This document shows positions 12,632 through 18,892 of a DNA stretch of 64,000 nt, piece after piece. Made by a program: the position numbers and the translations under genes. Source of the DNA: an uncultured Armatimonadia bacterium (lineage in GTDB: Bacteria > Armatimonadota > Zipacnadia > CAVVLO01); assembly GCA_963749155.1 (NCBI GenBank), contig CAVVLO010000002.1, forward strand, positions 1,555,708 through 1,619,707, written 5' to 3'. How positions within the stretch are numbered: the stretch's first letter is position 1; every line of letters starts with the position of its first letter. The notes below the pieces were generated by a model that worked only from the letters and a program-made list of their open reading frames with translations, was not told the origin of the DNA and did not search any database.

Positions 12632-12955
12632 CTAAAGAATCCTCGATAGCACGTAGGCCACAAGCACGAATAAGAAAATGACAATAAGCTTGAAGCCGAG
12701 GTAGATCCACAAGGGCGCCAGGGCCATTGCCGCCGCCGCGCCGATGGCTTGCCAGGCCAGTGGGATTGGCTCGTCCAGCCGTTCGATGGGAGCGAACAGT
12801 ATAAAGTAGAGCGATGCCAGACCCGCGCCAACAGCCGCAAGGACGATCAACCACAGGCCCAGCGCCAGGCTGCAGGAAGTAACTATCCCCAGCCCGAGTC
12901 CAGCCAGTACAAAGACAAGAGTCTTGGTGGAATCCTGAGATGCCACTCTCTCCAT
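12632..12955 (-). CDS. Small hypothetical membrane protein
   Basis: About 107 aa, several hydrophobic segments; start MERVAS chosen because the longer ORF overlaps the accC tail. Confidence 0.6.
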   Translation of the reverse strand: MERVASQDSTKTLVFVLAGLGLGIVTSCSLALGLWLIVLAAVGAGLASLYFILFAPIERLDEPIPLAWQAIGAAAAMALAPLWIYLGFKLIVIFLFVLVAYVLSRIL

Positions 12956-12975
12956 TCCGCTCACCCTCGTAGCTA

Positions 12976-14327
12976 CTACTTGCCCAGCAAATTGTCTCCG
13001 AGGAAACTTGTGGTCGCCTGGCCCTGCACGAAAACAGGATGGGCGATTATCTGCTTTTGGAAGGGCAGACTTGTCTTGATTCCTTCCACTACACTTCATC
13101 GAGGCAGCGCGCCATCCTCGCAAGTGCTTCACGTCGGTCGCCGCCCCAGACAATAAGCTTGGCGAACATTGGATCATAATAGGGGGACACCTGCACACCA
13201 GGCCCCAGGGCATAGGTATCCACGCGGACGCCCATCCCACCAGGCCAGCGCAAACCTGTGATGGTGCCAGGCGACGGCTTGAAGCCTTCGTTTGGGTCCT
13301 CAGCCGAAAGCCGGCACTCGATAGCGTGACCCATCAGTTTGACCTCTGCCTGGGTAAAGCCCAGCTTTTCGCCTGCCGCGATGCGAAGTTGCAGCTTCAG
13401 CAAGTCCAGCCCGGTCACTGCTTCGGTCACCGGATGCTCGACCTGCAGGCGGGTGTTCATTTCCATAAAGTAGAAGCGCTCTTTTTCGTCCACCAGAAAC
13501 TCGATTGTGCCCGCGTTGGCGTAGCCAATCGCTTTGGCGGACTTCACCGCGGCAGCGCCGAGTTTTTTGCGAGTCTCGGGTGAGATGCCTGGCGAGGGAG
13601 ATTCTTCTACCATCTTCTGATGGCGCGGGGTCTGCACCGAGCAGTCGCGCTCGCCCAGGTGAACGACCTCTCCATGCTCATCACCGAGGATCTGCACTTC
13701 GACATGGCGAGGATTGACGATAACTTTTTCCATATACAGCCCGTCATTACTGAAGGCCGCTTTGGCTTCTGCCCTGGCCAGGTCAAGCACAGCCTGCAAT
13801 TCTGAGGCCGCGTTAACGATGCGGATGCCTCTGCCGCCTCCACCCGCTACCGCTTTCACCATCACAGGATAACCCAGCTCGGAGGCCAGTTTTTCGGCCT
13901 CGCGGGTATTGCGGATAAGCCCCTCAGAGCCCGGTATCAGTGGCGCGCCGGCCTTGCCTGCTGAAAGACGCGCTTCGGCCTTGTCGCCCATCCGCTCGAT
14001 GACCTCGGGGCTCGGGCCGATGAACTTGAGCCCTGTCGCGCGGCACTGGTCGGCGAAACTGGCGTTCTCCGACAGGAAACCATAACCGGGATGGATTGCT
14101 TCGGCGCCGGTTATGTGAGCGGCGCTGAGCACATTAGCTACATTGAGATAGCTCTGCGGAGCCGGCCCCGGGCCTACACATACGGCTTCTTCCGCAAGTT
14201 GCACATGCAGGGCATCACGGTCGGCCTCCGAGTAGATGGCCACCGTAGCTACGCCCAGCTCGTGGGCCGCGCGGATGACGCGGACTGCTATCTCGCCCCT
14301 GTTGGCTATCAGGATCTTCTCGAACAT
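12976..14327 (-). CDS. accC: Biotin carboxylase; apparent frameshift near 13093
   Basis: ANRGEIA, HPGYGFLSENA, GGGGRG, EMNTRLQVEHPVTE; tail VVEGIKTSLPFQ... lies in a shifted frame. Confidence 0.93.
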
Positions 14328-14337
14328 CCGGACTTCC

Positions 14338-14694
14338 TTAAAAGGTAGGATGGGTGGGACATTGCACGGTGCCCGTGCTCGGATCATAAAGATAAGGTTG
14401 GTGAGACTCGGGGCAGGCCATCTGTTTTTCTCCGAGCTGCAACTGACCGAGGTCAGTTGGTGGAGTATCGCTGTCCACCATAAAAATCTGGATGGCAGAG
14501 CGCACCTGCTGGAGATTGGCGCGACAAGCCGCCGCCTGGCCTGAACTGACAGCCTGGTTCATCACATTGGTCTTCTCGCCGGCTGGCCCGCCCTTGTTCA
14601 GCCCGCCAAAATAGACATAGCCGACGAAAGCTCCCATTATGATGAGGGCCACTACGAAACTGACCATACCGAATCCGGCGCGTGGATTATTCAT
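14338..14694 (-). CDS. Pilin/pseudopilin-like protein
   Basis: RAG|FGMVSF followed by a hydrophobic helix; CRANLQQVRSA; C-terminal CP...Y...VQCPTH. Confidence 0.6.
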   Translation of the reverse strand: MNNPRAGFGMVSFVVALIIMGAFVGYVYFGGLNKGGPAGEKTNVMNQAVSSGQAAACRANLQQVRSAIQIFMVDSDTPPTDLGQLQLGEKQMACPESHQPYLYDPSTGTVQCPTHPTF

Positions 14695-15134
14695 CACTGC
14701 CCCTCCCCAGAGGCAACCTCTACCCTCAAGACGGGCTCTCCAAATTCGACTGGCTGGCCATCGGTCACGAGCACCTCGACCAGTTTACCTTCGACATCTG
14801 ACAGCAGGGGATTGACGATACCGATGGAGACGATGCAACCCACCTGGCTCTTGCGGGCGATATTTTCTCCAAGCAGTATGACAGGCTCTTCTCCAGGCGA
14901 GGCGCCGTGGTAGAAAACACCCACCCGGTCAGAGCGGACTACAACTCGCGCCGGCTCAGGCTGCTCGCCAGCTTCGGTGTCCTGCGGCTCCGGCTCAGGC
15001 TGTGGGGTTGCAAAGACGCCTCGTGCGCGTTTGGCCTTTATGATGAGCCCGCCTGTCTCCAGCTTCAGTTTTTTTGCTGAAGAAGCGGCAAACACTTGCA
15101 GCACGCCTTCGAGCTTCTCGAAATCCAGCTCCAC
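14694..15134 (-). CDS. AccB/BCCP-fold protein lacking the biotinyl-lysine
   Basis: Position between efp and accC; Pro/Glu linker; SDRVGVFY, GQPVEFGEPV; the EAMKMMN motif reads VSIGIVN. Confidence 0.85.
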   Translation of the reverse strand: MELDFEKLEGVLQVFAASSAKKLKLETGGLIIKAKRARGVFATPQPEPEPQDTEAGEQPEPARVVVRSDRVGVFYHGASPGEEPVILLGENIARKSQVGCIVSIGIVNPLLSDVEGKLVEVLVTDGQPVEFGEPVLRVEVASGEGQ

Positions 15135-15146
15135 GTAGCGCCTCCG

Positions 15147-15707
15147 CTAGTTCGCGCGTTCGATGTAGTTGCCGTTGCGCGTATCTACCTTGATTTTGTC
15201 GCCCTCGTTCACGAAGAGCGGCACCTGAACCACCGCGCCAGTCGAGAGCTTGGCCTGCTTGCTGGCCCCGGTAACGGTATCGCCCTTGACACCAGGCTCG
15301 GCCTCGACTACCTCGGCGATAATGGCAGCCGGTAGCTCTACCCCGAGCAGCGTGCCATCGTGCACAATGGTCAGGACTTCCAGGTTGTCGACCAGCCAGC
15401 GCGCATCATCGCCCAGCGCCGCAGCGGGGATACTCATCTGGTCATAACTTTCGTTGTCCATAAAGACATACTCATCGCCCGCGCCATATTGGAACTGCAC
15501 CATCCGCTTGTCGAGGATGGCCTGCTCCATTTTTTCGCCAGCGCGGAAGGTCTTCTCCAGCACCTTGCCCGAGCGCACCTGCTTGAGCTTGGTGCGAACG
15601 AAGGCGCCGCCTTTGCCGGGCTTCACATGCTGAAACTCGACCAGCGTGTAAATCTCATTGTCCAGGATGATGCTTATGCCGTTCTTGAAATCCGAAGTCG
15701 AAATCAA
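15147..15707 (-). CDS. efp: Elongation factor P
   Basis: HVKPGKGGAFVR, EPGVKGDT, VPLFVNEGD. Confidence 0.97.
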   Translation of the reverse strand: MISTSDFKNGISIILDNEIYTLVEFQHVKPGKGGAFVRTKLKQVRSGKVLEKTFRAGEKMEQAILDKRMVQFQYGAGDEYVFMDNESYDQMSIPAAALGDDARWLVDNLEVLTIVHDGTLLGVELPAAIIAEVVEAEPGVKGDTVTGASKQAKLSTGAVVQVPLFVNEGDKIKVDTRNGNYIERAN

Positions 15708-16311: not shown

Positions 16312-18706
16312 TCAGCTCGCTGTGAGACCAAGGTCACGTTCAAAGGCGAGTTTGAAGACTTCTACCGCATGATCCACAAGCACCAGTTTGAGGCCGCGTC
16401 GGACTTCGGCTGGCAGGTCGGCCAGCTCATGCTCGTTAGCTTTCGGTAGTAGAACGGTGCGCACGCCTTCGCGCTGCGCTGCCAGCAGCTTGGTTTTCAA
16501 TCCGCCTACAGGGAGTATTCTACCACGCAGCGTTATCTCGCCAGTCATCGCCAGGCGAGGCCGCACTGGCTCTTTTAGCAAGCGCCGATAGCAGCGCTGT
16601 CGCCAGAGTGATCCCGGCCGAAGGCCCGTCCTTGGGCACCGCGCCCGCGGGCACGTGGATGTGGATAGAGTGTTTTTCGAACAGCTCTGGCTCCAGTCCA
16701 AGTGGCTCAACAAGCGAGCGCACATAACTGGTCGCGGCTTCGGCGGACTCTTTCATTACCAGGCCCAGGCTTCCAGTCAGTTTGAGTTCGCCCTTGCCAG
16801 GGGCCAGGTTGACCTCGATAGGCAGCAGATCGCCGCCGACTTCAGTCCACGCAAGGCCCATAGCCACGCCGTTTTCTCCCTCGCGTAGCTGGCTTTCGCT
16901 GAGGAAAGGCGGCAGGCCGAGGAGCTGCTTCACCAGCTTGCCTGTCACCTGCTTGGGGGGCTTCTGGCCACTGGCGATCTGCTTGGCCAGCTTGCGACAG
17001 ACCGAGCCTATCTGCCGGTTGAGGTTGCGCACGCCCGCCTCGCGAGTATATTCGCGCACAAGCACCTGCAAGGCTGTCTTTTCGAATTCGAGCGGACGCT
17101 TCTTCAGCCCGTTGGCCTCGAGTTGGCGCGGTATCAGATACTTGTAGGCAATTTGCAGCTTGTCGAGTTCGGTATAACCTTCGAACTCGATGACTTCCAT
17201 CCGGTCCAGCAAGGCCGGCGGCAGATTTTCAAGATCGTTGGCTGTCGCGATAAACATCACCCGGGACAGGTCGAAGGGCACTTCCAGGTAATGGTCGCGG
17301 AAGGAGTTATTCTGCTCTGGGTCGAGCACCTCGAGCAGGGCCGAGGCTGGGTCACCCCGAAAATCCGCGCCCAGCTTGTCTATCTCGTCTATCATAAAAA
17401 TTGGGTTGGCCGAATCCACATTGCGCAGGCCCTGGATTATCTTCCCAGGCAGAGCGCCAACATAGGTGCGCCTGTGGCCGCGGATTTCGGCTTCATCTCG
17501 CACGCCGCCGAGTGAGATGCGAATGAACTTGCGCCCCATCGTCCGGGCGATGGACCGACCCAGACTTGTCTTGCCGGTGCCCGGAGGCCCAACGAAGCAC
17601 AGGATTGGCCCGTGCAATTGCTTGTTGAGCTTGCGCACTGCCAGATATTCAAGAATGCGCTCTTTGGCTTTTGCCAGCCCATAATGGTCTTCTTCGAGGA
17701 TCTGATTCGCCTTCTCGATACTCAGCCGGTCCCGCGTATACTTGCTCCACGGCATATTCGCGAGCCATTCGAGATAGGTAATAGCCACCGAATACTCAGG
17801 CGACATCGGGGCCAGTGTCTCCAGCCGGTTGGCTTCGCGCTCAGATTTCTCTCTGGCCTCTGCTGGCAGCTTCGCGCCTTCGAGTTTTTCGCGCAACTCG
17901 TCAAGCTCGCCCGACCAGCCGCGCCCCTCGCCCAGTTCTTCCTTTATGGCCGAAAGCTGCTCGCGGAGGAACATCTCGCGCTGGTGATCGTCTATCTCCT
18001 GCCGCACTCGCTGGTTGACGCGCTGCATAGCTTCGCTGATCTGGCGTTCGCGTTCAAGCAGCGAGAGGGTCATAGCCAGCCTTCGAGGCACCTGCAAGGT
18101 CTCCAGTAAACGCTGCTTGGGTTCTTCCTCGACTGGCAGGTAGAAAGCGATAAGGTCGGCGGCATGCCCCGCGTCCTGGGCGTTCATAACCGAAACAAGC
18201 GACTCGGGCTGAAGGCCCGCGCCCGAGTTGGCCAAGGTAGCGAAAGCGTCCACCATCGCCCGATATTGGGCCTCGATTTCGAGTTCCAGTTCGGCCGGAC
18301 GGGATTCGGTCTCGGTCTCAATCAGTTCGGCCAAAGCTTCGAGATGATCGTTTATCGCGACAACTTCGATCAGGCGGGCGCGTTCAAGCCCTTCCAGTAC
18401 GACGCGCATCGTGCCATCGGGCAATTTCATCCCCTGCATAACTCGGGCAAGACAGCCCACCTGATAGAGGTCATTCGGGCCAACTTCCTCGAGCCCCCGG
18501 TCGCGCTGAGTCACGACAAGCAGCAGCCGGTCGCCCTCCAGCGCTTCGGAAAGGGCGGCAAGTGACGCGTCGCGTCCCACGATAATTGGCGCGGCGGCGC
18601 GCGGGAAAAGGACGATGTCGCGCAGAGGCAGCAGAGGCAGTCTTACCGGGCCGCCGCCATCTTCAGGCGATACTTTCATCGCGTCCTGTTTTTTTCTGGG
18701 AGACAT
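16312..18706 (-). CDS. lon: ATP-dependent Lon protease; apparent frameshift at homopolymer 16573-16576
   Basis: LPLRD, GPPGTGKT, PKDGPSAG; AMTGEITLRG..VGGLKTK lies in a shifted frame. Confidence 0.95.
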
Positions 18707-18892
18707 CTCCAAAACATCCTTTCGCTCGATGCCAGGTTGTTATCTGGCTTCCGAGGCACACAAACACCACCAGGTTTCGAGTGGGCAACCCTTGCGCGCA
18801 AAATGCAGGGAAGCCTGCTACTGACCAGGCTGTGACAATACCTTCTCCGTCCAGGGGCAGCGTCCTGCCTGCCCAGGGCCGGTCCGGCAACG

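Follow-up and report, generated by a model that had tools for sequence, protein, structure and literature searches.

Which role is left to a protein that takes the place of a biotin carrier and lacks the lysine to which biotin is attached? The question is raised by accB', a gene in a 64,000-nucleotide stretch of contig CAVVLO010000002.1 from an uncultured Armatimonadia bacterium (assembly GCA_963749155.1); this whole stretch is called the window below. The gene lies downstream of efp (elongation factor P) and is followed by a small prepilin-like gene and by accC (biotin carboxylase). Its product, AccB', is a paralogue of AccB, the biotin carboxyl carrier protein (BCCP) of heteromeric acetyl-CoA carboxylase (ACC). 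This enzyme performs the committed step of fatty-acid synthesis and is a target for antibiotics and engineering, and the assembly of its loose subunits is still being worked out. To our knowledge, ACC subunits that resemble BCCP but are not biotinylated have been described only in plants and algae. Judged from sequences and structural models, it is moderately probable that AccB' is a functional, non-biotinylatable AccB paralogue, acting as a non-catalytic ACC subunit in the ancestral accB slot, and that the carboxyl group is carried by a separately encoded BCCP.

A carrier-like protein without the biotinyl lysine

The accB' reading frame is open over 146 codons and starts with GTG, with the sequence GGAGG eight bases upstream. 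At the site of the E-A-M-K motif of biotin carriers AccB' has S-I-G-I; the hairpin reads VSIGIVN, within the surrounding sequence ...QVGCIVSIGIVNPLLSDVEGKLVEV..., and a glycine (Gly105, codon GGT) stands in the biotinyl-lysine column. Codon 105 was assigned to this column by two alignments, one with the canonical BCCP of the same genome and 74 relatives, and one of the family profile with E. coli BCCP (4hr7_B). In the AlphaFold2 (AF2) model, Gly105 falls between strands 97-103 and 106-111. A shifted biotinyl lysine was also considered and rejected, since AccB' has no lysine near the hairpin tip: the nearest ones, K95 and K117, both lie off the tip, and none is found within nine residues of the site. 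Many relatives of AccB' carry a lysine at the following position (EALRK); a lysine displaced by one position is reportedly not biotinylated, a result attributed to Reche and Perham.

Apart from this site, the protein has the architecture of an ACC-type BCCP. An N-terminal alpha/beta/beta motif, which in E. coli BCCP is required for assembly with biotin carboxylase, is followed by a linker rich in P, E and Q (residues 39-65) and by a C-terminal barrel, and the gene is encoded together with accC. The family profile of AccB' aligns to E. coli BCCP 4hr7_B over the full length, from profile position 2 (E = 1.7e-35), with a consensus arginine opposite the biotinyl lysine. The mean pLDDT of the AF2 model is 83.8, with values of 95-98 over residues 62-140, and the top Foldseek matches of the model are structures of E. 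coli BCCP (1a6x, 1bdo and 4hr7_G; TM 0.93 and rmsd 1.1 Å for the last). The barrel retains the thumb of ACC-type carriers, the region aligning without gaps to E. coli FYRTPSPDAKAFIEVG. The score with the TIGR00531 model, 68.8 bits, is below the cut-off of 115.2 bits, which alone says little because the canonical BCCP of the genome also scores below it (101.2 bits). The Biotin_lipoyl family model PF00364 gives 19.9 bits, short of the gathering threshold of 22.1 bits; the same model matches 33 of the 34 members of the family alignment (A1) at E ≤ 0.001, the best at 3.2e-18.

A search of the genome for the families of the ACC system revealed a single biotinyl domain above the Pfam cut-off. It belongs to a canonical BCCP of 164 codons on another contig, C5 (G000:C5:62021-62431, G000 being the genome of the window), which carries the sequence VEAMKVFNEV and has the gene for homoserine dehydrogenase (hom) next to it. 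The genome also encodes BirA (TIGR00121, 114.6 bits), and accD and accA, which are adjacent to each other. The accC gene of the window is the only match to Biotin_carb_C; therefore ACC is the only biotin-dependent carboxylase of this genome, and its working carrier is encoded away from accC. A BCCP-like fold without the biotinyl lysine thus occurs alongside a true BCCP, the combination by which the BADC proteins of plants are recognised. The order BCCP-hom-thrC was found in six of the eight loci of the canonical copy that were scanned downstream, and this conserved setting is an argument for assigning contig C5 to the same organism. The neighbourhood of the canonical copy with hom, in some cases followed by thrC (C5, L001 and L012; L046, L047, L055, L060 and L079), shows no obvious tie to fatty-acid synthesis.

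A first-pass annotation of the window, made by a model from the letters alone, had described accB' as an intact gene in the accB position, with BCCP architecture and the hairpin VSIGIVN (GGT at 14822-14820). The reading frame, the alignments and the structural model agree with that description. The annotation had further placed the true carrier elsewhere and proposed a search for birA and accAD; the second BCCP with its AMK motif on C5, birA, accD, accA and the sole biotin carboxylase gene were all recovered.

Distribution and descent of the lysine-less copies

In order to compare the carrier genes of related genomes independently of the motif itself, copies were sorted by their neighbours: those beside efp, the small gene or accC were classed as SYN, and those beside none of these as ALONE. 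The nearest genomes were drawn from the same class. Here, AccB' found a match in 40 of 41 genomes (G000 included), mostly two per genome. Among the 40 SYN copies of the class the residue at the lysine site is R in 24, G in seven, K in seven and N in two, so that 33 lack lysine, while E[AV]MK is kept by every one of the 35 ALONE copies. Five genomes of the class seemed to be without an ALONE copy. The TIGR00531 model recovered an EAMK copy in three of them, and the same search found no second carrier in G038 (83% complete, with a lysine-less SYN copy) or G011 (whose SYN copy has the lysine).

Across a sample of the phylum, all 121 genomes had a match. Outside the class, 81 further loci were classified. 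The 53 SYN loci comprise K in 23, G in 17, R in eight, T in two, and S, D and N in one each, and lysine is thus absent from 30 of them; among the 23 with K, one (G042) has an ALONE-type motif in a different gene order; all 23 hom-linked copies and all five others have K. Taken over the class and the rest of the phylum, each of the 63 copies away from the SYN locus keeps E[AV]MK. The same efp-accB'-small gene order with a lysine-less motif is found in a record titled 'Armatimonadota bacterium' (L132). The pattern of a lysine-less accB' and a separate carrier is phylum-wide, and by the title of this record the phylum is probably Armatimonadota.

The family is visible through profile searches. 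A word-based protein search with AccB' returned 11 matches only. With the family profile, a search of 1.84 billion protein representatives gave at least 36 lysine-less clusters among the best 150 (R in 25, G in six, N in two, and one each with D, S and Q), mostly at the top of the ranking. Within families the residue at the lysine site is stable, as in f10 and f11 (EALR) and f26 (AMG). The top match of the profile, P0012, is a protein of 546 residues with four matched stretches, the best of which contains EAMK; by its sequence it may be a tandem multi-BCCP protein.

A pattern search built from a two-row alignment (DGQPVE[FY]G, a pattern common to ordinary BCCPs) found 80 loci, of which 78 are canonical accB genes of other phyla; the rest are L132 and L150. 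The latter derives from a record titled 'uncultured Chloroflexia bacterium', and its class includes the cultured Chloroflexus and Roseiflexus. All 41 genomes searched in that class have a match, mostly two each. The best 30 loci (L273-L302) are lysine-less without exception (N in 26, R in two, A in one and Q in one), mostly with the motif E-[AS]-L-N. The gene lies beside efp in 26 of these 30 loci, neither neighbour was found in the other four, and accC is adjacent in none. The family therefore extends past one phylum, and linkage to accC is not needed.

A quick maximum-likelihood tree of 100 carrier domains placed the SYN copies in one clade (SH-aLRT 96), which includes the window protein together with P0002 (96), and also P0010, L132 and L150. 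The ALONE copies form a separate clade (99) on a long stem, and the ordinary accB products of other phyla lie on the SYN side of this stem, outside the SYN clade. The order efp-accB-accC with a canonical accB is seen in many other phyla. From this order and the tree it follows that, by position, the SYN copy descends from the ancestral accB, and that it is the copy that lost the lysine. A second tree, of 94 SYN sequences with the motif columns left out, requires at least 12 changes between K and other residues. It is based on about 85 columns and is poorly resolved, and the count is therefore taken only to mean that the lysine changed several times.

Predicted contact with AccC, proposed role and alternatives

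Complex prediction with AccC and AccB' gave an ipSAE of 0.75 (0.75, 0.75 and 0.74 in individual runs); the best of three controls scored 0.00. Of 157 solved complexes, 116 attain the mark used for such scores, as do two of 215 mismatched pairs; this calibration is only rough for custom alignments. Agreement between the runs covers at least 74% of contacts, and the partner has a pLDDT of at least 71. The predicted interface joins residues 70-73, 103-104, 128 and 130-133 of AccB' to residues 34, 49-53, 59, 64-69, 71-73 and 98 of AccC, and three of the four family-invariant columns (V71, G72 and V129) were counted among the predicted contacts.

In the E. coli enzyme, the barrel of BCCP sits at a non-catalytic site on biotin carboxylase (BC), and an alpha/beta/beta motif made up of the first 30 residues of BCCP is proposed to oligomerise and to retain BCCP, according to the accessible text of a preprint on ACC tubes (PMC11160672). 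By the same logic, the C-terminal barrel of AccB' would park on the non-catalytic site of BC, and its N-terminal motif would associate with BC and with other BCCPs. AccB' would thereby occupy or organise the BC module and tether or gate the true carrier, namely the second BCCP with EAMK beside hom-thrC, which could be biotinylated by BirA and would carry the carboxyl group. The outcome might be an assembly 'glue' or a competitive brake, the two roles debated for plant BADC; sequence cannot tell which.

Recruitment of AccB' to a task outside ACC, as a partner of the prepilin-like membrane protein or as a generic barrel-sandwich adaptor with its place beside accC being an inherited order, is the alternative that survives best, although we regard it as unlikely. 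Such a task would fit the prepilin-like gene that separates accB' from accC in most SYN loci, with the start and stop overlapping in the window, as well as the retention of the lysine-less copy beside efp, with no adjacent accC, in 26 of 30 loci of the L150 class. It leaves unexplained why the full AccB architecture is kept, including an N-terminal assembly motif exclusive to ACC-type BCCPs, and why the predicted AccC interface scores far above the controls.

Slightly less probable still is that AccB' remains part of ACC biology with a mainly regulatory task, in gene expression or signalling, either through autoregulation of the operon by its N-terminal domain or by serving as a decoy for PII/GlnB or another regulator directed at BCCP. 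In comparison with P0002, conservation is highest in the N-terminal domain (30 of 39 columns matching), but the C-terminal barrel is conserved just as well (56 of 81 columns, with pLDDT above 95); it also bears the predicted AccC surface, which would be superfluous in a purely N-terminal regulator, and no DNA-binding feature was seen in AccB'. Precedents for regulation exist: the available part of the ACC tube preprint describes the AccB N-terminus (residues 1-68) as a negative regulator of expression and states that AccB is sequestered by GlnB (PMC11160672), and in Arabidopsis PII is described as interacting with BADC and BCCP, as far as the accessible text of that study goes (PMC12706156).

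If accB' were a functionless relic drifting to loss after the second BCCP took over, the wide variation of the residue at the lysine site (R, G, N, T, S and D), the 12 or more changes on the SYN tree, the SYN branches being longer than those of the canonical copy and the motif of the window protein being the most eroded would all be expected. The pattern of substitutions speaks otherwise, and makes this explanation very improbable. By the Nei-Gojobori method, dN/dS in pairs of lysine-less SYN genes is 0.18-0.38 (10 of 12 pairs, the other two being saturated), equal to that of the working carrier in the same genome pairs (0.14-0.44; eight of 10 pairs). The carrier domain is open in all 40 aligned SYN copies of the class, one of which reaches only the end of its contig. 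Between AccB' and P0002, the two domains are conserved, in contrast to the linker (nine of 27 columns matching); the residue at the lysine site is stable within families; and the lysine-less clusters, at least 36 in the best 150 of the protein library, would be hard to reconcile with decay. The lysine-less copies are under purifying selection and constitute a maintained family rather than decaying genes.

An assembly or sequencing artefact concealing a true gene with AMK is so improbable that it can be set aside: apparent one-base errors do occur nearby, in accC (13091-13095) and probably in lon, but seven residues differ from the motif without a change of frame, the same variant recurs in P0001, P0002 and P0051, and the gene has no indel in contigs from four public runs. 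The protein P0001 comes from a different assembly and is 99% identical to AccB' with an identical motif, P0002 is 65% identical with the hairpin LSIGVVNPLISNVEGK (LSIGVVN), and P0051, a third representative, has the hairpin SIVAIGVVNPLY. The contigs of the four runs, from four studies, cover accB' with 7-16 base differences and no indel, the comparison addressing indels and difference counts and not the codon at 14820-14822. Thus accB' is neither a sequencing error nor a decaying gene.

Several observations weigh against the reading of AccB' as an ACC subunit. Within its clade, no member is more diverged than the window protein: the motif has lost its E and A as well, the stem branch measures 0.87, and the protein is below the Pfam cut-off; the window lineage may be under weaker constraint than the R-type relatives used for the dN/dS estimates. 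Lysine is retained in 29 of 92 SYN copies, so the SYN copy is not always non-catalytic, and one lysine-less genome, the incomplete G038 (83%), showed no second carrier. A similar complex has been solved (4HR7), and the docking score may accordingly reflect likeness only, not binding by AccB' itself. Finally, the accC frame of the window is broken by a stop at 13089, with the remainder in the -1 frame and the PF02785 match split at profile position 74/75. In all four public runs compared, the contigs have an additional base behind 13091 or 13092 that restores the frame, and the break probably reflects either an error of the assembly or a change peculiar to this strain.

The lon gene (window 16312-18712, (-)) is apparently split as well: a frame of 730 codons ends with ...SAGITLATALLSALAKRASAASPGDDWRDNAAW, and the sequence expected to follow, MTGEITLRGRILPVGGLKTK..., is encoded in an overlapping frame of 137 codons. 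This suggests that the assembly may hold further single-base indels. The breaks in accC and lon leave accB' unaffected.

The first-pass annotation had judged a sequencing slip unlikely, had named neutral decay of the orthologues as an outcome that would speak against it, and had proposed a structure prediction with AccC. The recurrence of the variant, the dN/dS values and the predicted docking (0.75 against 0.00) all fell on its side. Its proposal of a scaffold or regulator of biotin carboxylase was upheld in every part accessible to computation, namely the second BCCP, birA and accAD, conservation and predicted docking, whereas the scaffold or regulatory function itself we infer from models.

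A wider proposal can be put forward tentatively, with less confidence than the subunit reading itself. Armatimonadota and Chloroflexia may share an old, undescribed family of 'pseudo-carrier' ACC subunits, in which accB lost biotin repeatedly after a second BCCP had arisen. Its members would have become obligatory structural subunits that fill the BCCP dock and tether the carrier through the N-terminal motif; this would be convergent with the glue role of BADC, and the subunit would possibly work with the prepilin-like protein.

Gene order and comparison with known systems

The features of the locus are collected in the table below.

Table. Coordinates of accB', its parts and its neighbours in the window
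Feature	Position	Strand	Basis
efp (elongation factor P), upstream neighbour of accB'	15147..15707	(-)	Pfam EFP_N, EFP, Elong-fact-P_C
accB', lysine-less AccB/BCCP paralogue, 146 aa	14694..15134	(-)	ORF, TIGR00531, family profile, AF2, Foldseek
N-terminal alpha/beta/beta motif of AccB', residues 1-36	15027..15134	(-)	helix 5-17, strands 22-27 and 30-35 (model); alignment with E. coli BCCP (tagged chain), residues 20-55
C-terminal biotinyl-type barrel of AccB', residues 62-140, thumb-length insert kept	14715..14951	(-)	pLDDT 95-98; TM 0.93 to 4hr7_G
GGT codon, Gly105 in the biotinyl-lysine column, hairpin tip	14820..14822	(-)	direct read, column alignment, model
Small membrane-anchored prepilin-like gene, 119 codons, between accB' and accC	14338..14697	(-)	ORF, homologues in the same slot
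accC (biotin carboxylase), main frame from MFEKILIANRGE to the premature stop	13089..14327	(-)	TIGR00514, 638.6 bits, profile positions 1-409 of 449
accC, last 39 codons in the -1 frame (SVVEGIKTSLPFQ...LLGK, then stop)	12976..13095	(-)	one-base gap relative to relatives

The genes are tightly packed in an operon-like manner. The spacing between the efp stop and accB' is 12 nt, the start of the small gene (GTG ATG) overlaps the accB' stop, and accC, with the first residues MFEKILIANRGE, begins 10 nt past the small gene, from 14327. The window shares the order efp-accB'-small gene-accC with the majority of the 40 SYN loci in its class, some neighbours being hidden by contig ends or short flanks.

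In most SYN loci of the phylum, accB' and accC are separated by a homologue of the small gene (L016, L020, L029, L044 and others). The model of the prepilin N-terminal domain, TIGR02532, scores above its cut-off in four of the six copies tested, the window copy being below it. The N-terminus of these proteins is of prepilin type (GF-x-L-x-E), the window copy being without the Glu of the motif, and their C-terminal motif CPVSGxPYxYDPxTGxVxCxTPGHE resembles a metal-binding knuckle. Between accC and nusB, a further frame at window 12632-12966 (-) encodes a small protein with several hydrophobic stretches (MERVASQDSTKTLVFVLAGLGLGIV...) and no Pfam match.

Three known systems invite comparison. The epsilon subunits (AccE) of actinobacterial acyl-CoA carboxylases are not known to resemble BCCP in sequence or fold, or to derive from it. 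They are likewise small and non-catalytic and help to assemble and activate a biotin carboxylase complex, as stated in the accessible part of a 2025 article (PMC11926652).

With E. coli AccB, known from the structure 4HR7 and from the ACC tubes, AccB' shares the architecture, the fold, the N-terminal motif, the linker, the thumb-length insert and the accC gene downstream. Unlike E. coli AccB, it has S-I-G-I in place of E-A-M-K, which by its sequence would preclude biotinylation at the canonical site and the carrying of CO2, and the prepilin-like gene is inserted between accB' and accC. Genes of this kind are likely to be annotated as accB, so that the carrier may be misplaced in annotations while the real one lies elsewhere in the genome.

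No description of a bacterial lysine-less BCCP paralogue was found in a literature search that covered few subscription journals; the first-pass annotation likewise knew of no characterised bacterial example, and the available text of a paper on the ACC of Chloroflexus (PMC11077971) does not mention one.

The closest parallel is with the BADC proteins of plants and algae (BADC1-3 of Arabidopsis). As described in the accessible parts of recent papers, BADC is a BCCP-like protein without the AMK motif, a non-biotinylated mediator of BC-BCCP assembly (PMC11926652, PMC11889953), and it binds both BC and BCCP, its action on the BC-BCCP subcomplex being disputed between glue and inhibitor (PMC11926652, PMC11889953, PMC12706156). 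In one of them, from 2025, it is termed 'unique to the plant htACCase' (PMC11926652). Both AccB' and BADC are BCCP-like without the biotinyl lysine, and both occur alongside true BCCPs of a heteromeric ACC. The binding of BADC to BC has been reported, whereas the BC contact of AccB' is predicted, and unlike BADC, AccB' is bacterial and lies in the ancestral accB slot beside accC. It probably arose independently of BADC. A tree of bacterial sequences nests it (SH-aLRT 96) among the efp-linked accB products of the phylum to which it belongs, part of which retain the lysine; the term 'BADC-like' is used for AccB' as an analogy, and not to denote common descent. Selection maintains the family throughout at least one phylum, and the family is also present in a class of a second one. 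If the proposed role is correct, the division of BCCP into a carrier and a structural protein evolved more than once, and a bacterial family with BADC-like logic would offer a simpler system in which to address whether such proteins act as glue or as inhibitor.

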